DNA of 64,000 nucleotides from Escherichia phage VEcB: the sequence record NC_052663.1, one strand, 5' to 3'. Below the pieces are notes generated by a model. The model was not told the origin of the DNA. It saw only the letters and a list, made by a program, of their open reading frames with translations, and made no database searches. Every line of letters starts with the position of its first letter. Positions within the stretch are counted from its first letter, which is position 1. Of the stretch, positions 10,795 through 51,369 are shown piece by piece. Position numbers and translations under genes: made by a program.

Positions 10795-11082
10795 ATGGAA
10801 CTAGTGCAAGAAGTTTATGAAAAACTGAAAGAAGAGAATCTTGATTGGCCTGAACATGCTCTTATTGTCGTCAAAGATACTAATGGTGAAATAAAATTCT
10901 CAAGTGTAAGTGAAGATGATGTTGTTTTAAGTCCTACAGGATATTATATGAGAGGTGTTACGTGTCTATTCAACACCAAAGTGTATCCTGAAATTAAACT
11001 TAGTTACGGTGAACCTGATCATCCAGAAATCGTTACACGTAATGAATATGAAAATTATTATTTTGCTCGTGAAAGCAAATAA
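10795..11082 (+). CDS. hypothetical protein
   Basis: 95-aa ORF with GAGGAGG SD. Confidence 0.45.
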   Translation: MELVQEVYEKLKEENLDWPEHALIVVKDTNGEIKFSSVSEDDVVLSPTGYYMRGVTCLFNTKVYPEIKLSYGEPDHPEIVTRNEYENYYFARESK

Positions 11083-11090
11083 GGAAAACT

Positions 11091-11414
11091 ATGCAAAAAA
11101 TAAACACTGGTTCTCGTCCTAAACAGAAGCAAACAAAAGCAAGGGTATCTTATGTTGACAACTCTTGTTATAATTTCAAAAATGTTAAAGAAGTTATCAT
11201 TGATGAAAAAGAAGGTTTGATTCACATTTCATCTGAACGTTTGAAAGGTAGTGTTACTCTTCGTGAGAATGTATCTATACCTATGAAAGTTGTGGCTACA
11301 CTCTGTGTTGATAAACCAGATGTTGTTAACTACTATGTGTTCCGTGATAGTTGTATTTCATTACATAATAAGATTTTTAAATCTTCGCACGTTAAAACAA
11401 AACACATTGTATAA
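11091..11414 (+). CDS. hypothetical protein
   Basis: 107-aa ORF with AAGGA SD; last gene of plus-strand early array. Confidence 0.45.
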   Translation: MQKINTGSRPKQKQTKARVSYVDNSCYNFKNVKEVIIDEKEGLIHISSERLKGSVTLRENVSIPMKVVATLCVDKPDVVNYYVFRDSCISLHNKIFKSSHVKTKHIV

Positions 11415-11420
11415 CACATA

Positions 11421-11442
11421 AACCCGCTTCGGCGGGTTTTCT
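11421..11442 (+). terminator. rho-independent terminator (CCCGC-TTCG-GCGGG + T-run)
   Basis: GC hairpin followed by TTTT right after stop of 11091-11414. Confidence 0.6.
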
Positions 11443-11787
11443 TGTATGTGTGTTTTTATTTGTCTTAGCATAAACAATAGGAGGTATTATATCTGTAGTT
11501 GTAGAAGGTAGTATTGGTTTCTTAGTAGATAACCCTCACCCTTTCGTGGTTAAGGTTCATATTCAAGAAAAGGTAAGCAACAATACGTGGTTGTGCTTGT
11601 TAGATAGTAAGATACACTCTTATACAGAGGTTTATCTTCACACTTGGCAAATTGGTACGATAACAGCAGAGGATGAATTGATAATTGAACTATATGAACG
11701 AGATCTGTAGATGACTTTATTAGAGAGTATCGTAGTGTTAATCATCTTTATCATTGTTGTCATAGGATATTTTACAGAAGACTAAAA

Positions 11788-11820
11788 TAAAGCCCCTAGA
11801 AGCGATTCTAGGGGCTTTTG
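11788..11820. terminator. bidirectional terminator hairpin
   Basis: AGCCCCTAG...CTAGGGGCT stem flanked by A-run and T-run at convergence of plus and minus blocks. Confidence 0.55.
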
Positions 11821-11885
11821 TTTGCATTAGATAGGGAAACGTATTACTAAAATAAAAAGTGCGTTAGAATGCGTTACAGGAGGTT

Positions 11886-12143
11886 TTAAGAATGCATAAA
11901 ATCTTCTTCAGGGCAGGTTGAGAGATAAGAGATGCACGTTGGGACAACAACAACATTATCTTTAAGGTTTGCAACCAAGCCTTTTGTAATTCCAGCCACT
12001 GCCCCGTTAATATCTGCTTGACGGATACCAAAACCTTGTTGTGCGGATAGATAACAAAATCCCTCACCTTTCTGTTGATTATTATTGAAGTAATAAACGT
12101 AGTGCATCATAAAATGGTCTTTAACGATTTGTTCTGTGGTCAT
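11886..12143 (-). CDS. hypothetical protein
   Basis: 85-aa ORF, last gene of minus-strand block. Confidence 0.4.
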   Translation of the reverse strand: MTTEQIVKDHFMMHYVYYFNNNQQKGEGFCYLSAQQGFGIRQADINGAVAGITKGLVANLKDNVVVVPTCISYLSTCPEEDFMHS

Positions 12144-12157
12144 AATATTCTCCTATA

Positions 12158-12180
12158 AGAAAAGGGGCTTTCGCCCCTTG
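12158..12180 (-). terminator. terminator hairpin GGGGC-GAAA-GCCCC (minus-strand sense) + U-run
   Basis: hairpin immediately downstream of Sir2 gene stop; same motif recurs at 22315 and 35757. Confidence 0.5.
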
Positions 12181-12186
12181 GTCAAG

Positions 12187-12999
12187 TTACTTAGTCAAAT
12201 GATCTTCTATCATTTTTATGAAAGCAGGATTGCTAAAAGCATCTGCTGCCTTTTCTCTGTAAACAAAGACTCCTCTATCTTCGTAAAGAAGAGTTTCTTC
12301 GTAATTAATTCCTGGGTTAACAACAATCATTTTTGTACCCATATTAAGTGCAGGGAATAATTCCCAATTAAAATTGATAACTTGGTTTGAACATCCTACT
12401 ACAACAACCAAATCTTGCATGGTCAAAGTATCAAACAAGTGAGCCATATCTGCATACAAAGGTGCAGCCTCACCAAAAAATACAACATTAGGCTTCACCC
12501 AGTTATAATCATCTATGTTTATACTATTGTAACCAATGTCTACCAGTGTTTTGTAATCTCCAGGATGCATACGGTAAACTACTTCATGGAGATACCCGTG
12601 CACGTGAATAACAGAATCCCTGTCCACACCTGCTCGCTCTAGTAGATCATCGACGTTTGTTGTCAAGTTTACTACTTGGTTAGGATATTCCTTAAACCAC
12701 TTTGCTATTTGAATATGTGCAGCATTAGGTTGTACATCTTTAAGCTCAACACGTCTTTTGTTATAAAATTCGTGTGTTTTGGCATACAAATCCATACCGT
12801 TCTCGTCTACACCACCGACCACTGGAAGATCTGGTGATGTTCTCACACGATAACCTGCTTGGAAAGCTCCAATATCGCAGATCTCTTCTAAATCCCATTC
12901 TTCCCATAGGGCACGACCACTATCTGTGTCTGTTCGGAATGTTCGAATCCCACTATCTGCACTTAAACCAGCTCCACTAACAAAAATTACTCTTCGCAT
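12187..12999 (-). CDS. Sir2-family NAD-dependent protein (deacylase/ADP-ribosyltransferase/NADase fold)
   Basis: GAGLSADSGIRTFR, PNAAH, TTNVDDLLERAG, HVHG and VFFGE motifs; no zinc-ribbon cysteines. Confidence 0.7.
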   Translation of the reverse strand: MRRVIFVSGAGLSADSGIRTFRTDTDSGRALWEEWDLEEICDIGAFQAGYRVRTSPDLPVVGGVDENGMDLYAKTHEFYNKRRVELKDVQPNAAHIQIAKWFKEYPNQVVNLTTNVDDLLERAGVDRDSVIHVHGYLHEVVYRMHPGDYKTLVDIGYNSINIDDYNWVKPNVVFFGEAAPLYADMAHLFDTLTMQDLVVVVGCSNQVINFNWELFPALNMGTKMIVVNPGINYEETLLYEDRGVFVYREKAADAFSNPAFIKMIEDHLTK

Positions 13000-13556
13000 T
13001 CAATATCCTCTTCGTAATCATCATCCCAAGAAGATGCGTCGTAACGCTCTTCCTCTTCGAAATCCCAGTTAATTTCTACCCCAAAATCTAAAAACAATTT
13101 AACAATGTTTTCTGTAGAGTAGTATTTATCATAAGCATTAGCTAATTCCCAATATTTATCACTCAATTTTTTATAAGTAGGATCATTATAGTCATAATCC
13201 ACTTTATAACCATAGTCATACATCTCTTGTTCAGCTTTAAGCATAGCTTCTGGTGTAAGAAGATTAGGGAACGGACGATTTCTTTCTTTTAACTTAGAAG
13301 CGATCCAGTTTGCAACATTCGCCACTTCACCATCTCGATTATCACCTAAACAACTTGCATAATCTCCATCTTCGTAAGTGCCTAAATCCCCACTTACTTC
13401 ATGTACAATAGATGAATACGATCCACACGTTTCACAATCTGAAAAAGTGTCTACTGTTGTAATATCAATAGATAAAACTGGTAAAGCCATAGCTTCTTTC
13501 ACACAAGCCTCCTCATATAATAACATGTCATCAAAACCCATATATCCTCCAGACAA
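12987..13556 (-). CDS. hypothetical highly acidic protein
   Basis: 189 aa, D/E-rich especially at C-terminus. Confidence 0.45.
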   Translation of the reverse strand: MSGGYMGFDDMLLYEEACVKEAMALPVLSIDITTVDTFSDCETCGSYSSIVHEVSGDLGTYEDGDYASCLGDNRDGEVANVANWIASKLKERNRPFPNLLTPEAMLKAEQEMYDYGYKVDYDYNDPTYKKLSDKYWELANAYDKYYSTENIVKLFLDFGVEINWDFEEEERYDASSWDDDYEEDIECEE

Positions 13557-13595
13557 ATAAAGCCCCTGCTTGGGGCTTTGGTTAAGTTTTACGGA

Positions 13596-14204
13596 TTATA
13601 CCAGACTTTTAAGGTACTTGTCAAGGGCTTCTTGATCACCTTGACAAACATAGCAACGGAAGTCTTGAGCAGAAGGTTCTTTGTCCTCGTCCCAATCCCA
13701 GTAGACAGTACCTTTATAACGTGAGCCTGGGAACTCGAAATATGCTGTATGAGTAATATGATGTGGGCCACCCCAAAACTGTGTAAAAGTAAATTGAGGA
13801 TACGCTGCTTTAACTGTATTTTCAAACCAAGTTTTACGATCTAATGCTTCGTTTATAAAATAAGCATGGCGTTCCATTTCATCCCAGTCTTTCCAAACGC
13901 ATTTTTCGTCCAGAGAAAAAACAAAATCTTCACTGTTGAATTCATCTGTATCTTCCAAAATATCATAATCATGTGCACTAGGTATCCACCATCCAGCTTC
14001 TAATAGTGCTTTCACGGGTACAAAACCTTTTTCAGCATATTGATCAAATTCTTTTACTCTACGTACAGTGCAGTATTCATCTTCACCACCAATGTCCAGT
14101 AGACAAGCACCTTTGCGTCTTGCTGCAAGACCATGTGTATCAAAAACTACAACACTACCTTCACCATCTTCACGATCTACTTGATATGCAACTTTTTGAG
14201 TCAT
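13596..14204 (-). CDS. hypothetical protein
   Basis: 202-aa ORF; terminator-like hairpin at 13561-13580. Confidence 0.45.
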   Translation of the reverse strand: MTQKVAYQVDREDGEGSVVVFDTHGLAARRKGACLLDIGGEDEYCTVRRVKEFDQYAEKGFVPVKALLEAGWWIPSAHDYDILEDTDEFNSEDFVFSLDEKCVWKDWDEMERHAYFINEALDRKTWFENTVKAAYPQFTFTQFWGGPHHITHTAYFEFPGSRYKGTVYWDWDEDKEPSAQDFRCYVCQGDQEALDKYLKSLV

Positions 14205-14327
14205 ATTACCCCCAATGTATATGGGAAATTAACCAAAAGATAAATTCCCAAAAACACCAACCAAGAAAAGTTAATGGAATTATAAAAGCTATCAGAGCAG
14301 TCTTCCAGCCTTTCCACAATGTTTCCA

Positions 14328-15317
14328 CTATTCCTCCATACATTTAAGAATATGTGCAATGACAGGTATAGTCCAACCGTTACCTAACATCTTATATGCT
14401 TGTGTGTTACTACTCACTTTAAAGTAGTCATCTGGCACACCTTGCAAACGGCAACACTCTTTAACGGTTAACTTTCTATAATGTACGCCTTCACTCAATT
14501 TTTCAAAAGCATCTAAATATCTTCCAGGTGGAATGTAAGCTAATAGTACGTCTTTCGGCACAGTCGTGAGGCAACGAGTTTTTTCACTGTCCTGAACTTC
14601 CAAACAATGTACCAAACGATCAGTTTTAGATGTACTACGTTTGCCATTTTCATTAATTCTACGCCCATATATTGCTGCTGGATAAAAAACCAGTTGTCTG
14701 CGACTCTTTTCAAAATACTGTTCTATATTACCACCTTTGGCATAATTTGCATCTATGCAATAAGCCTTATCTCTGTCTACAATACTATCATCTTCAATGA
14801 TATCTTGCAACACTTCATTGGTAATATCCCAAGGTTTTATTTCCCAGTTGCACCAGTATAAACGTTGTCTATTCTGTGCCGTGAAATCTGCGGAATTAAT
14901 GAATACGGGATCAACACCTAAGTAACTTGTGATCACGTTTTCCCACTCCACTTTCATCTTAACGTTTTCAAGCATGAACTTAACATTAGGGTTAAACTTT
15001 TTAATATGTTCAAGAATCTCAACATATTCGAAGAATAGCTTAGATCGCGGATCTTGAAAGTTCAAACCCTTACCAGAAGAAGAGAAGCCTTGACACGGAC
15101 TACCACCTAACAAAAGATCAATTTCTCCCCACGGGATATCCCATTCTCTCCATTTTGTAACATCACCTAACTGAATAATATCTGGAAAATTTGCTTGGCT
15201 TTCAGCTACGGCAAATTTGTCTAATTCTGAAGCGTAATATGTATCTACTTCAATACCTGCACTTTTTAGCGCAAGCATTCCTCCTGACATACCATCAAAA
15301 AGACTTAAAACTTTCAT
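14328..15317 (-). CDS. DNA (cytosine-5)-methyltransferase
   Basis: FDGMSGG (motif I), GGSPCQGFS (PCQ motif IV), MLENVK (ENV motif VI). Confidence 0.85.
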   Translation of the reverse strand: MKVLSLFDGMSGGMLALKSAGIEVDTYYASELDKFAVAESQANFPDIIQLGDVTKWREWDIPWGEIDLLLGGSPCQGFSSSGKGLNFQDPRSKLFFEYVEILEHIKKFNPNVKFMLENVKMKVEWENVITSYLGVDPVFINSADFTAQNRQRLYWCNWEIKPWDITNEVLQDIIEDDSIVDRDKAYCIDANYAKGGNIEQYFEKSRRQLVFYPAAIYGRRINENGKRSTSKTDRLVHCLEVQDSEKTRCLTTVPKDVLLAYIPPGRYLDAFEKLSEGVHYRKLTVKECCRLQGVPDDYFKVSSNTQAYKMLGNGWTIPVIAHILKCMEE

Positions 15318-15319
15318 TA

Positions 15320-15730
15320 TTACTTCTTCTCCTTAACACTAACTGGTAATTCTGCCTTGAGGCAGAAGTTTAAACGGTAAGCCTCATTCTCATTTAAAAG
15401 TACAGATTCACACGATAACCAGAACAAGAGATCCTCAATACCAGGGCTGTTAAGCCAACAGTGCAGAAGAGAATGTTGTTCTATATCAATGTAATTTAGT
15501 AACAAGGCTTGTAAGGCGTAACTAGTTCCTGTCGTTTTTGCTTTTTCAAGGATGATATTGTGTTTACTAACAACTTTCTTCCTAAGACCAAACCATTTAT
15601 TAACAACAACAGTCTCCTCTTGTAGTTGTTTTCTTATTTTCTCACATTCTTTAACTACAATCTGCATCTTATCCACTGCTGATTGAAGTTGTTCTTTTGT
15701 TGGGTTTACAAAATAATCACTATAATACAT
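15320..15730 (-). CDS. hypothetical protein
   Basis: 136-aa ORF directly upstream of C5-MTase. Confidence 0.45.
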   Translation of the reverse strand: MYYSDYFVNPTKEQLQSAVDKMQIVVKECEKIRKQLQEETVVVNKWFGLRKKVVSKHNIILEKAKTTGTSYALQALLLNYIDIEQHSLLHCWLNSPGIEDLLFWLSCESVLLNENEAYRLNFCLKAELPVSVKEKK

Positions 15731-17160: not shown

Positions 17161-17481
17161 TTAACAAGTAATATTGGGAGTAACAATTGGATTAACAATT
17201 GGAGTAATAGGGTACGTAAACCAAGGGCTTCCAATTTCCCAAGGATTATAAGGTCTACGAGGATCGTATGGAGGAGTTACTTCAGGCTTTTTCCAAATCT
17301 CCGCTAATTGTTTCTTCCATTTATCCCTTGCTGTCTCATTATCTTCATCCAACTGTTCATCATTATCTTTTATTTCTGGTTTTGGAAATAAAAGCTCTTT
17401 GACTAACTCAACATCTTCCGTCTCAATAGTAGTTTCTTTCGTAAGTTCTCCTACTGTTTCTTTAATTGTGATTTTATACAT
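17161..17481 (-). CDS. hypothetical proline-rich protein
   Basis: 106-aa ORF. Confidence 0.35.
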   Translation of the reverse strand: MYKITIKETVGELTKETTIETEDVELVKELLFPKPEIKDNDEQLDEDNETARDKWKKQLAEIWKKPEVTPPYDPRRPYNPWEIGSPWFTYPITPIVNPIVTPNITC

Positions 17482-18227
17482 TAGTCCTCCTCTAAAGTAG
17501 AATAAAATTGTAACGTATTTGAATCATCAAAATATGCAAAGGTTAAATTACCATTGAAGCAAGATCCTGTGTCCATATATACCCTATTACTGCTAATTAC
17601 AGGTTTAGGAACATAAGAATGCCCGTGAAATACATAATCTACTCCTGAGACTCTAGGAAGAAGAATCCCTTCAAGTGCGCAATCTATCATATCACGATCC
17701 CACATTAAAGATTCTGTGAATCGAGAAACTTGCTCTTTATTCATATTCAAACAAAATGGCAAAACTTCTGTCACTGGTAAATGTTCCAAAACTGAAGGAT
17801 ACCCACCGTGAATAAAGCCTAGTTTCATATTACGATAATTGACAACAAGTACAACAGGTAAATCTTCTAGCATCAAAGCAAGAGCAGTTGCACCCTCTTC
17901 TCCACACTCGTCTAGAACTGTATGGCCTCCGTTCTGAAACCAACATTCGTAATATCGTCTATCACCTTCTAGCAACCCTTTAATCATCATATCTTCATGA
18001 TTTCCACGAATACCATAACGATTTAGCTTCCTGGTGAATTCAACAACACAACGAAAATTCTGCTTGCCGCGATCTGTAAGATCTCCTAAAGATACAACAA
18101 CATCTTGATCTCGGATACCTAAAGTATTAACACCTTTCTGGTACAAATCAAAGCAACCATGTAAATCACCAATAATAAACAGGTCTTGATCATCTTTTAC
18201 ACTAATTTCTTGATATACTAGCATCAA
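17481..18227 (-). CDS. Ser/Thr protein phosphatase (PPP family, lambda-PPase-like)
   Basis: GDLHG, GDLTDRG, GNHE metallophosphatase motifs. Confidence 0.85.
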   Translation of the reverse strand: MMLVYQEISVKDDQDLFIIGDLHGCFDLYQKGVNTLGIRDQDVVVSLGDLTDRGKQNFRCVVEFTRKLNRYGIRGNHEDMMIKGLLEGDRRYYECWFQNGGHTVLDECGEEGATALALMLEDLPVVLVVNYRNMKLGFIHGGYPSVLEHLPVTEVLPFCLNMNKEQVSRFTESLMWDRDMIDCALEGILLPRVSGVDYVFHGHSYVPKPVISSNRVYMDTGSCFNGNLTFAYFDDSNTLQFYSTLEED

Positions 18228-18560: not shown

Positions 18561-19133
18561 TTAATGTGTTAATGAAACTGCATAACTAAACACAGGTTCA
18601 GATATTACATCGGCTACAGTAATAAAAACGTCTTCGTCTTGAGTTGTTTCTACACGACATACAGTTACACCATTCACCACGAATTCAACGCAATGTGGAA
18701 TATCTTCACAAACGAAGGTAGTGTAAGTAACACCCAAAGCATCATACAAAGATTTAACAGTGTTTGCAAGTGCCGCAGTTTCTTCTTTTTCTGAGACAAT
18801 GAATGCTGTAACAATAAGATTGTTTGCATAGTTTAAACTGTCCTCTATAGCCAATGATTTACAAGGTAGTAATGCAAAATATTTACCTGGTTTAATCAGA
18901 CCTGCTTCCCATTGATTCAAAATTGCCTGGGATGGTTTAGTAATATAAAACAGATTTTCACTTGGGTTATCAATATTACTTCTGGCGATACAACGTGAAG
19001 GATTATTAATATCAAATACATGATCAAAATCTACACAAACAGGTAAACTGAAAGGTGTGAATTTTTTATCTAATAATCCTATGGCTGATAATATGTTTGC
19101 TGTGCTTATCTTCCCGTTAAAAGCTAAACGCAT
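18561..19133 (-). CDS. hypothetical protein
   Basis: 190-aa ORF. Confidence 0.45.
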   Translation of the reverse strand: MRLAFNGKISTANILSAIGLLDKKFTPFSLPVCVDFDHVFDINNPSRCIARSNIDNPSENLFYITKPSQAILNQWEAGLIKPGKYFALLPCKSLAIEDSLNYANNLIVTAFIVSEKEETAALANTVKSLYDALGVTYTTFVCEDIPHCVEFVVNGVTVCRVETTQDEDVFITVADVISEPVFSYAVSLTH

Positions 19134-22997: not shown

Positions 22998-23264
22998 TTA
23001 CTCCGCAATCTGAGCCATGAATTCACGTAGTTCAGAAAAACCTCCTACGTGGGTTAGCTGTTCACCATCTTCCACAAAAATCTGAGGAAATGTACGTGGT
23101 AGAACACCTGTTTTCTCTAAGACCAGAGTCTGAATCTGATCTAAAGAATAGTCTTCATCTAAGGTAAGGTATTTAAAATCCTGTTCACGCTGTTCTAGTA
23201 GAATCTTAGCGTTAGTGCAGAAAGGACAATTTGGTTTACCGTAGATAATAAAATTCATTTTCAC
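22998..23264 (-). CDS. glutaredoxin-like protein
   Basis: CPFC active site in an 88-aa protein. Confidence 0.7.
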   Translation of the reverse strand: MKMNFIIYGKPNCPFCTNAKILLEQREQDFKYLTLDEDYSLDQIQTLVLEKTGVLPRTFPQIFVEDGEQLTHVGGFSELREFMAQIAE

Positions 23265-24091
23265 TCCTTGTTTAAAAGTATAGTTAAAGTTCTTACAATA
23301 CCGCTATCAACACTTCGCGGATTTAAAGTAGGATCTGTTTTTAAATAAGATGTTGCTGGTCTGACTGCTTTGGAATTATAGGTTGAAGCAGATACAGGAT
23401 TAACTGTAACAGATAAATCTATAACAAGAAATATCTTTCGTGCAAAATCATACCAAGAAATATAATCTGCACCTGCATAGTGTACAATTTTACTATTTAC
23501 ACCATCTTTTACAAGTTTAAAAATTGTTTCTGCAAGATCAGGTGCATAAGTAGGACATGATAAATGATCACATACTACATTAAATTCTTTTTGACCACCG
23601 TTGTAGCGTTCCAACATAGTTTTCAAAAAGTTATGTCCAAATTCACTATAAACAGAAGCTGTTCTGATAATAAGTGCTGTAGGACAAACTGTTTGTACTA
23701 AAGTTTCACCTAATTGTTTACTGTAACCGTAGGTGTTCAAGGGGTTTGTTTTACTATCTTCTGTGCCAGCAACATGCCCATCAAAAACATAGTCTGTTGA
23801 AATATGTACAAACTGTATCAGTAAATCATTACATGCTTTGGCAATGTTTGTTGCACCGTATGCATTAACATTTATACAGGTGTTAACATCTTCTTCAGCT
23901 TTATCTACTGCCGTGTAAGCCGCACAATTCACAACAACATCAGGCACGTGCTGTACAAGACTATTCATAACATCTTTAAAGTTGGTAATGTCTATATCAC
24001 TTGCTTCAATCAAAATAACATCTTCTGGTGCAACTTTTGCCAAAGATTGTCCTAATTGACCTTTTGAACCAAAGATTAAAAATTTTGTCAA
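23261..24091 (-). CDS. rmlD: dTDP-4-dehydrorhamnose reductase
   Basis: N-terminal GSKGQLG Rossmann motif, size and operon position after rmlC. Confidence 0.75.
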   Translation of the reverse strand: MTKFLIFGSKGQLGQSLAKVAPEDVILIEASDIDITNFKDVMNSLVQHVPDVVVNCAAYTAVDKAEEDVNTCINVNAYGATNIAKACNDLLIQFVHISTDYVFDGHVAGTEDSKTNPLNTYGYSKQLGETLVQTVCPTALIIRTASVYSEFGHNFLKTMLERYNGGQKEFNVVCDHLSCPTYAPDLAETIFKLVKDGVNSKIVHYAGADYISWYDFARKIFLVIDLSVTVNPVSASTYNSKAVRPATSYLKTDPTLNPRSVDSGIVRTLTILLNKE

Positions 24092-24642
24092 AATATGATC
24101 TCCTTTAGTGTTTTGGCTTCCTTATCTTTTTGTGACAAGATAGGTTTAAAATTAATATCATTAAAGATTAAATCAAAACCCCAATCAATATTGATATCTG
24201 GATCATTCCACGCAAGACTACACTCTGAAGTCGGATCGTAATATTCTGTACATTTATATTCAAAATCAGCAATGTCACTAATCACAACAAAGCCATGAGC
24301 GAAACCAGGAGGAATCCAAAATTGTGTTTTATTCTTTTCAGATAAGAGAACACCTACCCATTCTCCAAATGTTGGACTACCAACCCTAATATCTACAGCA
24401 ACATCATAAACTTCACCACGAACACAACGTACTAACTTCCCTTGTGGGTTTTTCTTTTGAAAATGAAGCCCACGTAGAACTCCTCGAATAGAACGTGAAT
24501 GGTTATCTTGGACAAAGTTTTGTTTACCTATGTATTGATCATATAAAGCCTGATTAAAACTTTCTAAGAAAAAACCACGTTCATCTCCGTAAACGTCAGG
24601 TTGAATGATCAACAAATCTTCGATTTTTGTTGCTTGAATCAT
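24088..24642 (-). CDS. rmlC: dTDP-4-dehydrorhamnose 3,5-epimerase
   Basis: RGLHFQ, KLVRC, DVAVDIR, GFAHGF cupin motifs. Confidence 0.9.
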   Translation of the reverse strand: MIQATKIEDLLIIQPDVYGDERGFFLESFNQALYDQYIGKQNFVQDNHSRSIRGVLRGLHFQKKNPQGKLVRCVRGEVYDVAVDIRVGSPTFGEWVGVLLSEKNKTQFWIPPGFAHGFVVISDIADFEYKCTEYYDPTSECSLAWNDPDINIDWGFDLIFNDINFKPILSQKDKEAKTLKEIIF

Positions 24643-24654
24643 TTAATTCCCCCT

Positions 24655-25524
24655 TTATTTTAATTTAAGTAAATACTTACCGTAGTCTGTTTTACTTAAA
24701 ACCTCTCCAGAACTTTTTACAGAGTCTAAAGTAATCCATTCATTTTTAAAAGCAATCTCTTCCAGGCATGCAACCTTCATACCTTGTTGCTTTTCTATTG
24801 CATGAACAAATTGAGATGCTTCCATAAGACTTTCATGTGTTCCTGTATCCAGCCAAGTGAAACCTCTTCCTAGTTTACAGACACGTAAAGTCTTTTCTTT
24901 CCAGTACATCTCATTTATATCTGTGATCTCTAATTCCCCTCTAGCAGAAGGTTTAACGCTTTTAGCTTTCTGTATAACAGAATTATCGTAAAAGTACAAG
25001 CCTGTAATTGCATAATTGCTTTTTGGTGCTTTTGGTTTTTCTTCAATACTTACCACTGTACCTTCAGAATCAAACTCAACAACACCAAATCTTTCAGGAT
25101 CATTTACGTGATACCCAAAAATATTAGCTCCACCATTCTTTTCAATATGTTCTTTAGCAGAATCTAAAATGCTACCAAAACTCTGACCAAAGAACAAATT
25201 ATCACCTAGAACAAGTGCTACAGAATCTTCACCAATAAAGCTCTCACCAATAATAAACGCTTCTGCTAAACCTTTTGGGTTGTCCTGTATTGCATACTGT
25301 AGGGAAATACCAAAAGAAGAACCATCACCTAGAAGATTTACAAAATTAATTTGATCTTCTGGTGTCGTAATTATTAGTATTTCCCTAATTCCAGAAAGCA
25401 TTAGGACAGAGAGTGGATAATAAATCATAGGTTTATCGTAAATTGGTAATAGTTGTTTACTAACCCCTTTAGTAACTGGGTAAAGTCTTGTTCCACTACC
25501 ACCTGCTAAGATAATACCTTTCAT
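24655..25524 (-). CDS. rmlA: glucose-1-phosphate thymidylyltransferase
   Basis: [16 protein letters not shown] nucleotidyltransferase motif, 289 aa. Confidence 0.9.
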
Positions 25525-25532
25525 ACTCCTCC

Positions 25533-26522
25533 TTAAACTTTATTTTCCCACCACTCTTTGTTATCTACATACCAATCAATGGTTGAATAAAGTTTTTCTT
25601 CAAATGTGCCTTTAGCTTTCCACCCTAATTCCTTTTCAATCTTATAAGGATTCACTTCATATCTTAAATCATGCCCAGGCCTATCTGTAACCATCTCAAT
25701 GAGGCTACAAGCATCTGTTTCAGATGGATACACCGCATCCATATAATCACAAATCATATAGATTACATCAATATTAGTTCTAGGGTTTCTGCTCCCAATA
25801 TTATATGTTTCTCCAGATTTGCCTTTAGTTACTACTAGGTGTAATGCTTCTGCGTGATCGTCAACGTATAACCAATCTCTTACTTGAAGACCATTGCCAT
25901 AAACAGGGATTGGTTTATGCATCAAAATATTTGTTATCGTTTTAGGTATTAGTTTTTCTGGATGATGATACGCTCCAAAATTATTTGAACAATTTGTTAT
26001 AACTGTCGGAATACCATAAGTACGATGCCACGCTCTTACCAAATGATCGCTTGCTGCCTTAGATGCAGCATATGGACTACTTGGCTTATAAGGATTCTGT
26101 TCTGTAGACGGATAATCCCCTTCTTCCAGATCACCATACACTTCATCTGTTGAAATATGATGAAACATTTTAAGATTTGATTTATCTCCCATTAAACGAA
26201 CAGCTTCTAGAAGATTAAATGTTCCAACAATATTTGAATTTATAAAAACACTCGGTGATGCTATTGAATTATCTACGTGACTTTCTGCTGCAAGATGCAT
26301 TATATAATCTGGATTAACATCTGCCACAATCTTAGCAGTTAACTGAGCATTTGTCAAGTCAACACGACAAAACTTTACATTAGGTGTTTCTGATAAATTT
26401 CTAGGGTCTGAAGCGTAACCCCATTTATCTATAACGTAAATATCATTCTTAGTGTTTTTAGCCAGGAAACGAACTACCGCACTTCCAATAAAGCCTAAAC
26501 CACCTGTTACTAAGTATTTCAT
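25533..26522 (-). CDS. rmlB: dTDP-glucose 4,6-dehydratase
   Basis: [12 protein letters not shown]-binding motif, short-chain dehydrogenase layout, 329 aa. Confidence 0.85.
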
Positions 26523-40296: not shown

Positions 40297-40926
40297 TTAT
40301 GTTTTAATCTTGCCAAAATACAATACTTCAGCTTCCTGTCTTGCTGATATAGCATCTTCAATATCAATAAATGCTCCAAGACGGATATCTTTTCCTTGAT
40401 AGGATATACGAGCAATCCATCTTTTTTCTTTCTCGCTCCACACAACACCTGTTTTACCAGAAGTGTTATTTTTCTGTTTTCGTGTATTGTATGACTGGAC
40501 AGACCTTGTAGCCCAGCGACAATTTTCTTTACTGTAATCTTTTTCAGAGTCTATTCTGTCAAGAGATAAACCTTTAGGTCTATCTCCCATATCCTCAAAG
40601 AATGCAGAGAATGAATTTCTCCAAGCATCACAAACCTTAATACCACGACCACCGTAGTATTCAAAGTGAGTATTGTTTTTGTTATAGCATCTCCCTAACA
40701 TAGCTTCCCACGATTTGTATGCTCCTGTTTGTGTTGTTTTCGGTCTACACTTGGAACAATAAGAACTTCTATTCTTCCTAAGTGTTTCCATAGTTACCGT
40801 GCAAATATTACCACAATCACAAGAACAAGTAAAACGTCTTTTGCCATGTTTGTCCCTTTCAATCTCTTCTAAGACAGTATAACAACCGCATTTCTTACCT
40901 ACAAGGTCTACTCTCTTGGCTCCCAT
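40297..40926 (-). CDS. homing-endonuclease-like protein with Cys-rich N-terminus and AP2 domain
   Basis: RWIARISYQGKDIRLGAFIDIEDAISA AP2-type motif; paralog of 28717-29373. Confidence 0.4.
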   Translation of the reverse strand: MGAKRVDLVGKKCGCYTVLEEIERDKHGKRRFTCSCDCGNICTVTMETLRKNRSSYCSKCRPKTTQTGAYKSWEAMLGRCYNKNNTHFEYYGGRGIKVCDAWRNSFSAFFEDMGDRPKGLSLDRIDSEKDYSKENCRWATRSVQSYNTRKQKNNTSGKTGVVWSEKEKRWIARISYQGKDIRLGAFIDIEDAISARQEAEVLYFGKIKT

Positions 40927-42023
40927 GTTCCCTCCACCATTTCCCGTAAACGGACACCTGTTGGTTTCGTAGGTATTCCACCATCGGAAAACTCTTCATA
41001 CTCAATCTCAACAAATTTACCAATTAACATTTCGGCATTTTCTGCTTTACGATAGTTAATGGTTTCATCTGAATCCTTACGCATCAGGAATTCGACTACT
41101 TTACCATTTTCCATCTCTCCTGTCAATACCCCGTCACCATTTTTATCACGCTTTGCACTTACCACTTTAACTTCAAGCGTCTGACGTGGTTTACGTTTAA
41201 TAACATCATAAGAACGTTTATCGAATTCGTAAACACCTTTTGCGTTACGATACACTACACCTTCCGCTTTCTCACGTAGAGCTTTTGCATAGAAAGCATC
41301 AAACTGTTCTTGGTTTTCAATGTACTCTGTATGTACTACACAAATAAGTTCATCTAAACCTTTATCTTCAACAACTTCTTTTAGAGCAGCCAAAACTTGA
41401 ACCCTCTTCTCAAATGGTACAGATGCCACAGGAACATCGTATACATAATATTTAAGAAGCGGTGTGTTAGCATTATGCTTTTTCCACGCACTATTAATTT
41501 GTTGAAGGCTAAGGACACCCAAGCCAGCAAAAACTTCACCGTCAAGAGGATGACCAACTACTTCTTTAATGAAGGTTGGAATTTCTTCCCAGTGAGGTGG
41601 AAGTTTATATACCTCCCCAGCTTTAGATAAACATTCACCTTGCATGTTAATCATTGAACGTAGACCATTCAATTTATATTGTGCATAACCTGGGAACAAA
41701 ACACGGTCAGCATAATCTTTATAATCCTGACATTTCATGGGTGTGGAAGGAACATGGTTTTCAGCTTCCTCTTTTGTTTTATAATACCCATTCTTAAGTT
41801 GCTTTGTCCACTTGGCAAGAGCTTCTATTTCAGCTTGTTCTTCTGCTGTTGTTTCATTTGAGCGACCAATATTTTTAGGTTCTGCCGTATAAGATTTGCT
41901 AGTAATCTTTCCACCTAATTGACCATGAGCAACAGTTACAACACTACCTTCGGTATAGACTGACCACTGTTTAATTTTACCTGTAGAAGTTTTACCATAT
42001 AACGTAGGATTAGTTTGTTTCAT
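40908..42023 (-). CDS. ATP-dependent DNA ligase
   Basis: motif I KLNGLR, III DGEVF, IV EGVVYR, V VIKRKP; start placed at internal Met (ORF track end 42071). Confidence 0.75.
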   Translation of the reverse strand: MKQTNPTLYGKTSTGKIKQWSVYTEGSVVTVAHGQLGGKITSKSYTAEPKNIGRSNETTAEEQAEIEALAKWTKQLKNGYYKTKEEAENHVPSTPMKCQDYKDYADRVLFPGYAQYKLNGLRSMINMQGECLSKAGEVYKLPPHWEEIPTFIKEVVGHPLDGEVFAGLGVLSLQQINSAWKKHNANTPLLKYYVYDVPVASVPFEKRVQVLAALKEVVEDKGLDELICVVHTEYIENQEQFDAFYAKALREKAEGVVYRNAKGVYEFDKRSYDVIKRKPRQTLEVKVVSAKRDKNGDGVLTGEMENGKVVEFLMRKDSDETINYRKAENAEMLIGKFVEIEYEEFSDGGIPTKPTGVRLREMVEGTWEPRE

Positions 42024-42213
42024 CTTTAACCTCCAGTTGCGAAAGAACCCATTTAGCCATTTCAATTTCACCGTGCAGTCTGCCTAGTTCATAGGCATCA
42101 TCAATATTACCACCAGTGTAATCATCCACCATAAAGTAAGGATCTTCGCTACTGTTAGGTGCGTTTGCAATTCTCGTTAGTTCTTCAATAAATGTCATAG
42201 TTACCCTTACCAA
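42010..42213 (-). CDS. hypothetical protein
   Basis: 67-aa ORF. Confidence 0.35.
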   Translation of the reverse strand: MVRVTMTFIEELTRIANAPNSSEDPYFMVDDYTGGNIDDAYELGRLHGEIEMAKWVLSQLEVKDETN

Positions 42214-42431
42214 TTATACACAAGAGTTTGAATCTCTTCCATCAAGTCTTCAAGATCTGTATCAACATATTCAGAAGATGTTGCCATAAAGTATGTAATC
42301 ATTGTGAACCCTTCCGAAGAAAGGGCATCAAGGATATCATTAAACATATCTTCCATTTCAGTATTCTCACCAAATGAGAATAACATTTGTTGATCTTCGC
42401 TTACACCTTTAACATAGATAGCTGTACTCAT
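42207..42431 (-). CDS. hypothetical acidic protein
   Basis: 74-aa ORF. Confidence 0.4.
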   Translation of the reverse strand: MSTAIYVKGVSEDQQMLFSFGENTEMEDMFNDILDALSSEGFTMITYFMATSSEYVDTDLEDLMEEIQTLVYNW

Positions 42432-42434
42432 ATA

Positions 42435-42755
42435 TTAATCCTTAAGACGTTCATTTAAATCTGCAATAACATCACCTAAATCTTCACATTCCAGTGTTAA
42501 CTCTGAAACTTGTCCACTCAAATAACAAACCTCTTCATTTAGATCTGAAATAATGTTTTCTAATGAATCTACTTGGTCATCATACGAACGTTTTGTTTCT
42601 TCAAGTTCTTCCGTAAGATCATTAATCAAACTGAGCAAAGATAAGATATAGCCGTCTCCTGTCTCGTTCCTCCACTCACTTCCGTAGCGATAAATAATAA
42701 TTTCACCATTATCGACTACTGTAAAATACTTACCTTCACCAGAATAAATTTCCAT
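42435..42755 (-). CDS. hypothetical protein
   Basis: 106-aa ORF. Confidence 0.4.
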   Translation of the reverse strand: MEIYSGEGKYFTVVDNGEIIIYRYGSEWRNETGDGYILSLLSLINDLTEELEETKRSYDDQVDSLENIISDLNEEVCYLSGQVSELTLECEDLGDVIADLNERLKD

Positions 42756-42764
42756 ACGCTCTCC

Positions 42765-43169
42765 TTATTGTAGCTTAAGTGAACTGCGAAGACGTTTCTC
42801 TTGCTGATCACGAATATGTTGTGGAACCTCATGAATTGAGTCGTTACCGTGCCTATTTTCAACAACTAAAGAGATAACTTGATAACCAAACTCTTCGGCA
42901 AGAGTAAAATAAGGTTTAAGTTCTTTCTCTGTGGTTGAAGTGTTAGAGACAATAATCTTTTTAATATTAGATGCCATAGCATCACGAACAATACTCTGAC
43001 ACCATGCGTGTGCTTTACCTACATTTTCTGGCTTCCAATCGTAAGCCCCGTTTTCTGTGTAATGATATTGATCTGCCTCACAGATAGGCCAATAACCTTC
43101 AGAAATAATTTCTGCTACTGTAGATTTACCTGCACCTGAAACACCACGTAAAATGATAAGTTGTTTCAT
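42765..43169 (-). CDS. P-loop kinase (polynucleotide-kinase-like)
   Basis: Walker A GVSGAGKST in a 134-aa protein directly downstream of the ligase-like gene. Confidence 0.55.
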   Translation of the reverse strand: MKQLIILRGVSGAGKSTVAEIISEGYWPICEADQYHYTENGAYDWKPENVGKAHAWCQSIVRDAMASNIKKIIVSNTSTTEKELKPYFTLAEEFGYQVISLVVENRHGNDSIHEVPQHIRDQQEKRLRSSLKLQ

Positions 43170-44102
43170 TTAGCCTCCAAAGAAGTTTTCTATTTCTTTA
43201 CGTCGCTCTTGTGGGTCTAGAGCAGCCCATTGAACCTTCGTAAAGTTATTTCGAAGCCATTCTAGCAAAGTATAATATTCTTCGTCAACAATTTGTTTAG
43301 CATTTTTTGGGTTGTCCCAAATCATATCCCACTTCTTATTGCCACCACGCATAAGGAACTTCTTAGCAAGATAGTATGGTGACTTAATCTTTAAGAGTAA
43401 GTTAAACGGATAGTTTGTTTCACGAACAACAAAGCCTTCGTGTCTACAATGTTTAGACATTTCAACAACATCTGAAAATTTAATCATCGGATAAACTTCA
43501 GGACGTTTAAATTTTGTAATAGATGCAATCCCATCAAGAACACCTTCAGGTAACATGAAACTTGTCCCATCCAGGTTTTGAATTCTTGCTCCAATTAAGT
43601 ACGCGCCTGGTTCTTCTTCGACAATATGTGGATCAGAAGGATCGCAGATTTCAAAAAGAAAAGTTGCTTTTGCACTTTCTGTCCACTTAATGAAATACTC
43701 TATGTCGTCACACTCGGAAACAATACGGTTCTTTGCCATAATTGCAAAATCTGATTCTAGGCTCCCTGTTGTTGATACAACAAGTTTCCCTTTGTACACA
43801 CCTACAGATGCCATAAAACCGTTTACTTTACGGACAGCATCTACAAGTTGGTCTGCTGGAAGATCTGTACCATTTTCAAAACGATTAAAGATTTTAGTAA
43901 AAGGCCAAATAACAACATTGTCTTCTGAGTCAACAACCAACCCACGACAATCTAGAAGGCGTTTGTCTACGTCCCACAAATTGTCCCAGAATACATTGTT
44001 TTTGTATTTAAGTACAGCAAGACCAGCATACTCTCCAGATTTAACTTCTTTTTTATGCACTAAACCTTTTGCAATCAGGTCATCACAATTGAACTTAGCC
44101 AC
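43170..44102 (-). CDS. RNA-ligase-like covalent nucleotidyltransferase
   Basis: motif I KVNG, motif IV EGFVVR, motif V LKIK. Confidence 0.5.
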   Translation of the reverse strand: MAKFNCDDLIAKGLVHKKEVKSGEYAGLAVLKYKNNVFWDNLWDVDKRLLDCRGLVVDSEDNVVIWPFTKIFNRFENGTDLPADQLVDAVRKVNGFMASVGVYKGKLVVSTTGSLESDFAIMAKNRIVSECDDIEYFIKWTESAKATFLFEICDPSDPHIVEEEPGAYLIGARIQNLDGTSFMLPEGVLDGIASITKFKRPEVYPMIKFSDVVEMSKHCRHEGFVVRETNYPFNLLLKIKSPYYLAKKFLMRGGNKKWDMIWDNPKNAKQIVDEEYYTLLEWLRNNFTKVQWAALDPQERRKEIENFFGG

Positions 44103-44103
44103 C

Positions 44104-44655
44104 TTAATCTCCTTTGATTATCTTATGATGATCTACAACAACAATATCACGCTTATCCATAATAGAGATGATTTCGTCAAAATGCAAGATTTTTCCGTGT
44201 ACGTCCCAACCAACATCCAACATTTTCCCATACAAATGATCAGGGAATGATCCGTGAGAGTGCCCGTGTAGCATGATTGATCCATGCCCTTGTTTATTCC
44301 AGGCAGCCATAGGGTAATGACTTAAGACGAAGAACAGTTTCTGATATTTCACTTCGTCATAATATACCACTTCACCATACTCTGCAAGCACTTTTCTGTG
44401 CTTACTGTAATCATGGTTCCCAACACAGTAAGTAATATCCCCTTGGAGACGGGAAGCAATCTTACGGGTATCTTCTTCAGTCCCGAAACAGAAGTCCCCA
44501 AGATGGTACATTTTTACTCCTGGTGTTGTGGCACATTTGTTCCATGCTTCGATCAGTGCTTCTGTCATATGCTCCATATCTTCCCACGGGCGATATTCAG
44601 GAGCAAACTCTCGAATACGTTTGTGCATAAAATGCAAATCACTTGTAATAAACAT
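44104..44655 (-). CDS. calcineurin-like metallophosphoesterase
   Basis: SDLHF, GDFCFG, GNHD, HGHSHG motifs. Confidence 0.7.
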   Translation of the reverse strand: MFITSDLHFMHKRIREFAPEYRPWEDMEHMTEALIEAWNKCATTPGVKMYHLGDFCFGTEEDTRKIASRLQGDITYCVGNHDYSKHRKVLAEYGEVVYYDEVKYQKLFFVLSHYPMAAWNKQGHGSIMLHGHSHGSFPDHLYGKMLDVGWDVHGKILHFDEIISIMDKRDIVVVDHHKIIKGD

Positions 44656-45017
44656 TAGTATAATCCCTCGCTGAATAGTTCACTGTCGTGACCATTTCTT
44701 TCATAGTTAATTTGTTTGGCGTTATCTGCAATGATATAAGCATCTTTGCGACTCCACCAATTATAATACTGATCAATAAACCCTTGATTATCAGGTAAGC
44801 AAAACAGTTTATCGATCAATCCTGCATCTTTTAAAACATTAAGTTGTGCAGATAGTACAGGATTTGCATGCCTAACACAAGGAATAATTAACTCTTCGCC
44901 ATTGTTGAGAATATACTTATTCGCAGCGCAGACTATAACACGTTGAGCATAGTGATCCTCACCAATCCAGGTAAGAGGTTGGTAACAAATATCATGTTGA
45001 TTAGTAGCGCACATCAA
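44655..45017 (-). CDS. hypothetical protein
   Basis: 120-aa ORF. Confidence 0.45.
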   Translation of the reverse strand: MMCATNQHDICYQPLTWIGEDHYAQRVIVCAANKYILNNGEELIIPCVRHANPVLSAQLNVLKDAGLIDKLFCLPDNQGFIDQYYNWWSRKDAYIIADNAKQINYERNGHDSELFSEGLY

Positions 45018-45169
45018 TTTTCTTCATACTCTTCGTCTGTATATATATCGTAAAAGCAATCTTCAAAAGTTGCAAGTGCTTTTTCTACATCGGGCCAATG
45101 GTTAGTGTGTTTGTATACATAAAACCCATCCCCTTCATCTACCCAAATAACATAAAGCATAACACCTCC

Positions 45170-45544
45170 TTAATAGTTAACACGTTTAATTTCAACACCA
45201 TAGGATGAAATAAAATTTTCCTTAGCTAACATATATTTACCAGCAGCAGAAGGATTTGATGTATGAACATAGATAGTTTTAAGAGCATCCCATTCACCTG
45301 CGTACAACATACATTCTACATCTAAGAACGCATGATATCCTTCTTGATCTTCCCCAAGATCATTATCGAAGTGTATTTCTGAGATGTTATTGAAATTATC
45401 TTCATCTGAAACAAAAGATGACCAATCCCCAAAAGATTTTAACCAAATGGCATCCTCATAACCATAATCTTTAGGATCTCTTAAATCGTCTAACCAAAGA
45501 ATTTTAGCCACTATCAACCCCCTTCCTGTTTCTCTTCTTTCCAA
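45170..45544 (-). CDS. hypothetical protein
   Basis: 124-aa ORF. Confidence 0.45.
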   Translation of the reverse strand: MERRETGRGLIVAKILWLDDLRDPKDYGYEDAIWLKSFGDWSSFVSDEDNFNNISEIHFDNDLGEDQEGYHAFLDVECMLYAGEWDALKTIYVHTSNPSAAGKYMLAKENFISSYGVEIKRVNY

Positions 45545-48441: not shown

Positions 48442-48451
48442 ATAATAAATG

Positions 48452-48480
48452 TTGACAATAGGGAGTATGCTTAGTAAGAT
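48452..48480 (+). promoter_or_regulatory. sigma70-like promoter TTGACA-N17-TAAGAT
   Basis: consensus -35 and -10 directly upstream of the Nampt-like gene. Confidence 0.55.
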
Positions 48481-48512
48481 ACTCCCACACTAACAAACAA
48501 GGAGACATAACT

Positions 48513-50986: not shown

Positions 50987-50994
50987 TATTCAAG

Positions 50995-51070
50995 GTTCCA
51001 TAGCTCACTGACGAGAGCGCACACCTCATAAGTGTCGAGGGCAGGGATTGTAACCCTGGGGAACCACCAT
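50995..51070 (+). tRNA. tRNA-Met (anticodon CAT)
   Basis: acceptor GGTTCCA/GGGAACC, anticodon loop CTCATAA, CCA encoded; T-loop atypical. Confidence 0.6.
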
Positions 51071-51101
51071 TTAAAAGGAGGTGCTATGCATCTCCTATAT
51101 G

Positions 51102-51187
51102 CAAGTGTGGTGGAATTGGTGATACACATTGTGCTTAAAACGCAACGCTTAAATGATTGAGGGTTCGAATCCCTCCACTTGCACCAA
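51102..51187 (+). tRNA. tRNA-Leu (anticodon TAA), class II
   Basis: acceptor GCAAGTG/CACTTGC, anticodon loop CTTAAAA, long variable arm, T-loop TTCGAAT, CCA. Confidence 0.7.
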
Positions 51188-51189
51188 CG

Positions 51190-51295: not shown

Positions 51296-51329
51296 CCGAT
51301 TTAAATAGTAATTTTTTAATAAAAATATC

Positions 51330-51358
51330 TTGACATTTACTTAGTTTTTTGTTATAGT
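51330..51358 (+). promoter_or_regulatory. sigma70-like promoter TTGACA-N17-TATAGT
   Basis: consensus hexamers immediately upstream of tRNA-like gene at 51370. Confidence 0.6.
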
Positions 51359-51369
51359 TACTATGAAAA

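Follow-up and report, generated by a model that had tools for sequence, protein, structure and literature searches.

The 64,000-nucleotide (nt) stretch of Escherichia phage VEcB analysed here (sequence record NC_052663.1; hereafter the window) carries at 12187-12999 a Sir2-family gene whose product lacks the zinc-binding cysteines of classical sirtuins. The question raised by this locus is whether such a protein can still consume nicotinamide adenine dinucleotide (NAD+) and on which substrate it would act. Overall, the gene was found to encode a bona fide single-domain sirtuin, which is probably an active NAD+-consuming member of a known phage clade. For the specific chemistry, CobB-like lysine deacylation was tentatively favoured on the basis of homology and the predicted structure. 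What was shown comprises the family, predicted fold, retained catalytic residues, zinc-ligand loss and gene contexts of the protein; its activity is inferred. An earlier note on this DNA, made from the letters alone, had described the same gene as encoding a putative effector that hydrolyses NAD+ or transfers ADP-ribose; its description of the gene was accurate and its effector interpretation is the less likely reading. The gene and its translation signal are as follows.

12187-12999, minus strand: Sir2-family coding sequence (CDS) of 270 amino acids (aa) with an ATG start, which is orthologous to phi92 gp038 and belongs to PHROG 2162
13007-13010, minus strand: GAGG ribosome-binding site 7 nt 5' of the sir2 ATG, found by reading the sequence; the same motif is annotated in phi92

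The family hidden Markov model of Pfam SIR2 (PF02146) matched the protein with an E value of 1.3e-22 and 81 bits against a cutoff of 24, and PHROG 2162, described as 'Sir2 (NAD-dependent deacetylase)', matched it over the full length with an E value of 1.4e-104. As sequence matches, both are far above chance level. The window comes from a phage of the phi92 type (Justusliebigvirus, Stephanstirmvirinae), with 98.9% identity to Justusliebigvirus alia and 97.6% to phi92 across 11000-15500; the CDS itself was 99-100% identical to annotated Justusliebigvirus genes. The labels given by depositors to the phi92 gp038-type gene varied between Sir2-like, sirtuin family, CobB and NAD-dependent deacetylase/deacylase. 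The gene is real, well conserved and not new, as it is covered by earlier annotation and by two published analyses.

The NAD-binding Sir2 motifs quoted in the earlier note were all found in the 270-aa protein. The motifs and segments on which the assignment depends were located as below, with the PNAAH motif at residues 91-95.

12934-12975, minus strand: GAGLSADSGIRTFR, residues 9-22, the NAD-binding glycine loop with cofactor-loop Phe21 and Arg22; G9, A10, G11, S13, F21 and R22 are invariant
12778-12867, minus strand: lineage-specific insertion of 30 residues (45-74), seen in the alignments and missing in rV5/Mydo-type and most other relatives
12751-12768, minus strand: FYNKRR with the class III signature Y79-x-x-R82 (and R83), aligning with FYNARRR of CobB
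12643-12663, minus strand: TTNVDDL, residues 113-119, with catalytic Asn115 and Asp117 and with Thr114 in place of the Gln of classical TQN(I/V)D
12595-12606, minus strand: HVHG, residues 132-135, with catalytic His134, from the alignments
12493-12594, minus strand: zinc-module equivalent without cysteine, residues 136-169, with a DIGY core and a predicted local distance difference test (pLDDT) score of 90-95
12469-12492, minus strand: PNVVFFGE, residues 170-177, with the FGE substrate/NAD loop, from the alignment
12349-12396, minus strand: GCSNQV followed by the clade-specific INFNWELFPA, replacing classical GTSxxVxPAA, from the alignments and with a lower pLDDT of 68-74

Invariance within the family was called on a 24-member alignment. 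In all 24 homologues the residues G9, A10, G11, S13, F21, R22, Y79, R82, R83, N92, H95, T113, T114, N115, V116, D117, H134, G135, K169, P170, N171, V172, F174, F175, E177, G202, S204 and N228 were identical. The NAD-site residues (GAGxS, Asn and Asp in xxN(I/V)D, and the catalytic His in HG) were therefore present in the protein and conserved in its relatives.

The four zinc-binding cysteines were indeed missing, as the earlier note had stated; the protein has just C41 and C203, neither of them between HG and FGE, and no cysteines were found in the zinc region of any sequence in the 24-member alignment. The places of the first CxxC are taken by Y142 and H145, and the second knuckle is shorter in the alignment. 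A His-based metal site substituting for the cysteines was ruled out, as neither H138 nor H145 is conserved among the family members. The wording 'lacking the zinc ribbon' was borne out for the ligands and not for the ribbon itself, since a beta module of similar length with confidently predicted strands is kept. In the AlphaFold2 (AF2) model, which had a pLDDT of 86 and a predicted template modelling score of 0.84, the zinc-equivalent segment was predicted as beta strands 135-143 and 151-154, running on into 167-172, with pLDDT 90-95. The HG to FGE segment has 34 residues in the Cys-free group and in this protein compared with about 37 in relatives with four cysteines (medians), and a central (D)IGY is common to both.

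A profile search of 1.84 billion representatives produced 4797 hits, and both motifs could be parsed in 107 of the best 150. Among these 107, sequences with TQN(I/V)D had no cysteine between HG and FGE in 5 cases, one or two in none and at least three in 61, and sequences with TTN(V/I)D had none in 26, one or two in 7 and at least three in 5; the counts come from related sequences and hence are not independent events. As read from these alignments, replacement of Gln by Thr in TQN(I/V)D goes along with the loss of the zinc cysteines across the clade. The zinc ligands were lost inside a clade whose closest relatives retain them, and the module itself survives. The deposited phage genomes matched the nearest relatives with four cysteines at less than 50% identity only.

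Search by tblastn showed that Sir2 homologues are present in 981 of 50,697 phage records (about 2%). T5-like homologues were about 52% identical, Mydo 56%, rV5-like 47% and Salmonella phage 7-11 51%, and those of Vibrio, Erwinia and E. coli jumbo phages were 29-39% identical (Vibrio 38-39%). A collection of 5.8 billion proteins gave 683 clusters at E ≤ 1e-5, of which the named ones were nearly all phage proteins and many sat on contigs of 90-155 kb. The clade is large and is found almost wholly on phage genomes and phage-sized contigs. By sequence, the protein of the window belongs to the rV5/Mydo/T5-like (SP15-type) sirtuin clade, with 47-56% identity over 98-99% of its length and the same PHROG. 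Some homologues were mislabelled: one in a Klebsiella phage is called 'nicotinamide-nucleotide adenylyltransferase', and that of Pectobacterium phage DU_PP_V is called 'tail assembly protein'. In addition, four 'Campylobacter phage' records (MG065656, MG065652, MG065655 and MG065666) carry the gene and their host labels look doubtful; the Sir2 of MG065656 (C3) showed 98% identity to the E. coli phi92-type protein and that of MG065666 (A12a) was at the rV5-like level of 47%.

Both parts of the sirtuin fold, the Rossmann domain and the small domain, were present in the protein. The best sequence match in the PDB was E. coli CobB with an E value of 6e-18, followed by Sir2-Af2, Sir2Tm, SIRT5 and Sir2-Af1. 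Foldseek gave CobB (1s5p) as the top hit with an E value of 1e-16 and a target template modelling score of 0.86, and the best 50 PDB hits were all deacylase sirtuins (CobB, Sir2-Af1/Af2, SIRT5 or Sir2Tm). The earlier note had named a fold closer to an unrelated Rossmann protein as part of what would refute its reading, and none came nearer among these 50. It had also proposed a structural comparison with other Sir2 domains, which gave the values below and placed the protein on the deacylase branch and not nearest the defence Sir2 fold.

Sir2-Af1 21.8; PfSir2A 18.9; SIRT4 18.1; SIRT1 and SIRT2 17.7; Hst2 17.5
SirTM 14.4; SIRT6 14.3; PsSIR2 14.2
KomC and Sir2-HerA 12.4; ThsA 11.8; Avs5 10.6

Among characterised proteins, the CobB/Sir2-Af1/SIRT5 deacylases come closest in both sequence and predicted fold. 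The residues of the CobB pocket, taken from PDB titles and counted by hand through the alignment with the CobB sequence, mapped on the phage protein as Y92 to Y79, R95 to R82, I131 to V116, H147 to H134, V187 to V172 and A76 to C41. CobB Y92 and R95 form the succinyl-binding pair; in SIRT5 and CobB, the carboxylates of succinyl and malonyl groups are bound by Y-x-x-R, the signature of class III. Lysine deacylation was favoured because the nearest homologues are deacylases and the acyl-lysine pocket is preserved.

If the protein is a deacylase, it would work without zinc and hold NAD+ in the canonical site (GAGxS, F21/R22, N115 and D117), from which nicotinamide would be expelled. An oxygen nucleophile of the substrate would attack C1' of the ribose, and His134 would next activate the ribose 2'-OH so that the adduct is resolved. 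The stage up to and including the attack on C1' is common to all candidate chemistries, and the step of the His and 2'-OH fits acyl transfer and a Tpt1-like attack on phosphate equally. The likeliest single substrate would be an acylated lysine, in proteins of the host or of the phage at an early stage of infection, and the Y79-x-x-R82 pocket suggests that negatively charged acyl groups such as succinyl may be accepted. The nicotinamide released, together with the ADP-ribose left after hydrolysis of O-acyl-ADP-ribose, could then be rebuilt to NAD+ by a gene pair elsewhere in the window.

47548-50246, plus strand: two-gene operon of a Prs-like (297 aa; 47548-48441) and a Nampt-like gene (577 aa; 48513-50246), probably NARP1 (Adps and Namat)

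The NAD+-restoring genes that the earlier note had placed here were thus present. A Prs-family gene (PF14572) stands immediately before a Nampt-family gene (PF04095) of the same orientation, which is the architecture of NARP1. In NARP1, Adps and Namat make NAD+ from ADP-ribose, nicotinamide and ATP and counter NAD+-depleting defences (bioRxiv 10.1101/2024.02.11.579819). The Nampt-like protein was 39-44% identical to homologues in Felixounavirus and Pseudomonas phages, one of which is annotated as 'nicotinamide ADP-ribosyltransferase'. No nicotinamide mononucleotide (NMN) adenylyltransferase is annotated anywhere in the genome of the close relative PaulScherrer, and partly for this reason the pair was read, from its sequence, as most likely NARP1 and not classical salvage through phosphoribosyl pyrophosphate and NMN. 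In PaulScherrer (MZ501100), a macrodomain gene (59.9-60.6 kb) lies beside a phosphoribosyltransferase and HAD gene at 59.9-62.1 kb, and a YbiA/NADAR-like N-glycosidase was seen at 82.0-82.6 kb, both outside the window. Since PaulScherrer adds these macrodomain and YbiA/NADAR genes, phi92-like phages appear to have a broad NAD/ADP-ribose toolkit beyond Sir2 and NARP1. Macrodomain proteins of the Poa1p-like kind tied to NARP1 operons convert ADP-ribose-1''-phosphate to ADP-ribose, and an ADP-ribose derivative released by the sirtuin could in principle be recycled.

A second set of genes that bears on the substrate is the nucleic-acid end-repair block of the window.

40908-45544, minus strand: nucleic-acid end-repair block, which contains the Sir2 gene in rV5/Mydo-type phages and not here
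40908-42071, minus strand: DNA ligase of the block
42765-43169, minus strand: small kinase of 134 aa
43170-44102, minus strand: T4 Rnl1-type RNA ligase
44104-44655, minus strand: metallophosphoesterase
45170-45544, minus strand: cREC (cyclic-phosphate processing receiver)

The Sir2 gene lies about 30 kb from this block in the window, so that the two are apart here and adjacent in relatives. Gene contexts were surveyed at 59 IMG/VR loci plus reference genomes (64 loci). In the rV5/Mydo arrangement (type A) the order was Nampt-like, Prs-like, phosphoesterase, RNA ligase, cREC, kinase, Sir2 and DNA ligase, and this block was within 3.5 kb of Sir2 in 13-17 of the 64 loci. The order RNA ligase, cREC, (kinase), Sir2 and DNA ligase was verified in AlexBoehm, which is rV5-like, and in Mydo, with cREC confirmed by Pfam. 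The window holds the entire gene set of this arrangement, the Prs-like and Nampt-like genes included, apart from Sir2. In the T5-like arrangement (type B), NrdA, NrdB, PhoH and NrdD were found upstream of Sir2, and a HAD_SAK_2 'RNA repair' phosphatase (E 4e-20) was identified in T5 about 0.4 kb downstream of the Sir2 stop. The phi92-like context (type C) is the arrangement gp039, sir2 and gp037. Single loci added a complete Nampt about 0.5 kb upstream of Sir2 (L063), Prs-like and Nampt-like genes 2.5-4.5 kb from it (L061), a nucleoside 2-deoxyribosyltransferase-like gene directly downstream (L064) and, on a 607-kb phage contig, an Rnl1-type ligase whose end lies about 1.2 kb upstream. Overall, Nampt-like genes were within 1.6-8 kb of Sir2 in at least three different genome arrangements. 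The phyletic overlap with RNA ligase was partial; 289 Salmonella phage records had Sir2 and just 15 had this RNA ligase, and many Pseudomonas and Streptomyces phages had RNA ligase with Sir2 absent. No partner gene was conserved next to Sir2 across the phage families surveyed. Separately, 15 tRNA genes were observed at 50994-54104 on the plus strand, directly downstream of the NARP1-like operon; among them are Lys(UUU), Tyr, Asn and Gln, the kinds that anticodon nucleases typically attack.

A number of findings weigh against zinc-free lysine deacylation. The NCBIfam CobB/deacylase models were all far under their cutoffs (the best with 106 bits against 243), and the clade departs from the deacylases at the active site by the invariant changes of Gln to Thr114 and of Ala76 to Cys41, by four extra residues in the cofactor loop (FRTDTDSG) and by INFNWELFPA, which replaces the VxPAA peptide-binding wall of classical sirtuins. 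The classical sirtuins investigated to date need zinc for their structure, so that zinc-free activity is an assumption of this reading. In addition, the gene neighbourhoods indicated RNA-end processing or nucleotide/NAD metabolism and never a protein substrate, and literature searches found no experimental or biochemical study of any phage sirtuin. Several of these points fit the main alternative, which with deacylation is a leading candidate though a less likely one, and in which the protein is an RNA 2'-phosphotransferase, a sirtuin-fold analogue of Tpt1/KptA. By this route tRNAs cut by anticodon nucleases would bear 2',3'-cyclic phosphates, which cREC, a 2H protein or a phosphoesterase would turn into 2'-phosphates; kinase and RNA ligase would reseal the ends, and the sirtuin would move the ADP-ribose of NAD+ onto the 2'-phosphate, after which His134 would activate the ribose 2''-OH and leave repaired RNA and ADP-ribose 1'',2''-cyclic phosphate. 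Sir2 stands among RNA-repair genes in at least three independent phage groups, the window has the kinase, Rnl, phosphoesterase and cREC block and the 15 tRNA genes, Y79, R82 and R83, all invariant, might hold a phosphate, and the clade-specific changes of the active site would fit a switch of substrate. However, Sir2 is about 30 kb from the repair block in this genome and its overlap with RNA ligase in Salmonella records is partial (289 versus 15), the proteins of the family have an acidic pI (median about 5), unlike typical RNA-binding enzymes, and the residues that line the narrow lysine tunnel are kept. T4-type healing and sealing moreover leaves no 2'-phosphate, which counts against such a role. 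The prediction of KptA-like removal of RNA 2'-phosphates was made by Iyer et al. 2022 in section 3.7.3 (PMC9503650), where the clade was defined. It is possible, though less likely than not, that the Cys-free, Thr-for-Gln clade as a whole has switched substrate, either to removal of RNA 2'-phosphates or to ADP-ribosyl transfer to nucleic-acid ends. A substrate-switched sirtuin coupled to the tRNA-repair and NAD+-rebuilding genes and countering anticodon nucleases, for which the in silico proposal dates from 2022, may likewise be regarded as a speculative possibility.

The reading of the earlier note, an effector that ADP-ribosylates host or phage macromolecules (as T4 Alt, ModA and ModB do with a different fold) or hydrolyses NAD+, was judged improbable. 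The loss of the zinc ligands, the association of TTN with zero cysteines and of TQN with at least three among the 107 parsable representatives, and the co-occurrence of NAD+-rebuilding genes with Sir2 agree with it, and Thr114 in TTNVD, which resembles the TTNYD of ThsA (6LHX), is one trait that leans this way. Some classical sirtuins also have weak ADP-ribosyltransferase activity, which counts in favour of an effector. The motif of the ThsA NADase was checked against 6LHX and 8BTO and is TTNYD with N112; a literature search on this motif found nothing. Nevertheless, the PADLOC defence profiles gave only a 13.7-bit match of 37 residues to PDC-S65 and no real hit, the Pfam search gave no SIR2_2-type match, and no sensor or partner of the defence type (SLOG, HerA, Argonaute or STAND) was fused or adjacent to the protein, which is a stand-alone single domain of 270 aa with orphan neighbours and no sensor or partner shared across families. 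The claim that zinc loss is the mark of an NADase or ADP-ribosyltransferase effector was poorly supported, as SirTM keeps its zinc, PADLOC gave no real hit, the best 50 Foldseek hits were deacylase-type sirtuins, and the beta module, the catalytic residues, FGE and Y-x-x-R are kept in the phage protein. SirTM, the one ADP-ribosylating class that is well characterised, retains the zinc domain, has QG for the catalytic HG and is linked in its operon to a macrodomain, GcvH-L and LplA2 (PMC4518038). SirTM identity was ruled out for the phage protein, in which H134-G135 is kept with no zinc domain and no adjacent macrodomain gene, and no Macro domain was found in the 10 neighbouring proteins tested. 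A plain NADase was disfavoured because a constitutive NADase with NARP1 alongside would presumably create an ATP-wasting futile cycle. Least probable, and very unlikely, was another small-molecule or signalling role, such as action on immune signals or by-products derived from ADP-ribose, base exchange of NAD+ or NMN, or non-catalytic binding of NAD+ or ADP-ribose. The repeated nucleotide/NAD neighbours (Nrd in T5-like phages, deoxyribosyltransferase-like in L064 and Nampt-like in several lineages) and the macrodomain and YbiA/NADAR genes of PaulScherrer would be consistent with it, as would the first finding of CobB through a phosphoribosyltransferase-like activity, which is given here as cited in PMC9503650. 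On the other side, none of the catalytic residues varies and neither does the FGE peptide-loop motif, in keeping with a macromolecular substrate. Zinc-free lysine deacylation by an active sirtuin is accordingly kept as the favoured, though tentative, reading.

The local unit in which sir2 would be expressed runs leftward and consists of promoter, hairpin, ribosome-binding site, gp039, sir2, the hairpin at 12179-12162, gp037 and a bidirectional terminator.

13595-13624, minus strand: sigma-70 promoter with a perfect 12/12 consensus (TTGACA, 18 nt spacer, extended TG-TATAAT), ahead of gp039 and sir2
13559-13579, minus strand: terminator-like hairpin starting about 10 nt past the expected transcription start
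12987-13541, minus strand: gp039-type gene of 184 aa upstream of sir2, its end overlapping the sir2 start by 13 nt
12162-12179, minus strand: terminator-like hairpin AAGGGGC-GAAA-GCCCCTT with a 7 bp stem, GAAA loop and tail TTCTTAT (-15.1 kcal/mol, z -2.3)
11886-12143, minus strand: gp037-type small gene of 85 aa downstream of sir2, the last of the leftward unit, with its own ribosome-binding site
11789-11818, no strand assigned: strong bidirectional terminator with a 13 bp stem at the convergent junction

Expression of sir2 is supported by its consensus sigma-70 promoter and its ribosome-binding site. The promoter overlaps the stop codon of the upstream gene. Transcripts from it would open with the hairpin at 13559-13579, since this begins about 10 nt downstream of the start, and a GGAGG ribosome-binding site precedes gp039 after this hairpin. 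The terminator hairpin reported behind sir2 by the earlier note was located 8 nt past the stop codon, and the Paula record annotates a terminator at the same place. It is probably a leaky or internal terminator, because gp037 comes next and has a ribosome-binding site to itself, while the strong terminator sits at 11789-11818.

The gp039-type protein has invariant C13, C36xxC39 and C64 and a very acidic C-terminal tail, and the four invariant cysteines may form a metal site. It is an orphan with only 5 clusters in the 5.8 billion proteins, and its AF2 model (pLDDT 82) had no fold match in the PDB. The label 'putative aminoacyl-tRNA synthetase' in the PaulScherrer record found no support from Pfam or PDB sequence searches. 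A role of gp039 as obligate partner of Sir2 or as a zinc module in trans was ruled out, since a relative with 73% identity (L009) lacks it, as do the T5 and rV5 families. On the strand of sir2, farther upstream, genes were found for a Dcm-like methyltransferase, a DprA-like protein, a lambda-phosphatase homologue, a 'HisRS-like' PHROG and PhoH. The 'HisRS-like' neighbour (18561-19133) had no PDB or Pfam match. The lambda-phosphatase-like neighbour (17481-18227) was a homologue of 1G5B (E 2e-29) with a weak match to the phosphatase domain of C. thermocellum Pnkp; as a clue to function it was set aside as non-discriminating, as it fits dephosphorylation of proteins and of RNA ends alike. Finally, four open reading frames at 23261-26522 on the minus strand correspond by coordinate offset to the dTDP-L-rhamnose pathway genes of PaulScherrer, which are annotated as reductase, epimerase, thymidylyltransferase and dehydratase and make up a complete pathway, an unusual phage cargo.

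The carriers of the gene include the model phage T5 and the therapy-relevant rV5- and phi92-like phages. A biochemical answer would show whether zinc is dispensable for a sirtuin and which substrate is used, acyl-lysine of proteins or a 2'-phosphate of RNA. With either outcome, a gap in the account of the conflict that phages and bacteria wage over NAD+ would be closed, and the result would clarify why Sir2 travels with RNA-repair and NARP1-type NAD+-rebuilding genes. If removal of 2'-phosphates proved to be true, the novelty would be the demonstration, as the hypothesis was already published in 2022.

In comparison with known systems, phi92 gp038, the T5 Sir2-like protein (T5p100) and PHROG 2162 represent the same gene, and the DNA of the window is 97.6-99% identical to phi92-like genomes. 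The sirtuins of phi92 (gp038), T5, rV5-like phages and Mydo are all without zinc cysteines and have TTNVD and the invariant motifs in common; between the phage families of phi92, T5 and rV5, the genomic position of the gene alone differs. Skliros et al. 2016 (PMC5107563) modelled the Sir2/CobB proteins of phiSt2 and phiGrn1 on CobB and reported the zinc ligand as absent, in KVP40 too; T5 and other phages were listed there as Sir2 carriers, the gene was tied to phage NAMPT and nicotinamide recycling, and it was proposed that phage Sir2 deacetylates and thereby activates acetyl-CoA synthetase. The sirtuins of phiSt2, phiGrn1 and KVP40 likewise have no zinc ligand but differ from the protein of the window by more distant sequence and much larger genomes. 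The defence Sir2 NADases (ThsA, DSR2, Sir2-HerA and KomC) also combine a sirtuin Rossmann core with the lack of a zinc site, and the Thr-Thr-Asn motif is shared with ThsA, the only one of them in which it was seen directly. Tpt1/KptA is NAD+-dependent, releases nicotinamide and proceeds in two steps via an ADP-ribosylated intermediate, as proposed for the phage sirtuin, but has an unrelated fold of the ADP-ribosyltransferase superfamily and no sequence similarity to it. E. coli CobB (1S5P, 6RXJ; class III), with 27% identity, shares the catalytic His, Asn and Asp, FGE and Y-x-x-R with the phage protein; it differs in having the zinc cysteines, TQNID and the GTSxxVYPAA wall, none of which the phage protein has, and its pocket residue Ala76 is replaced by the invariant Cys41.

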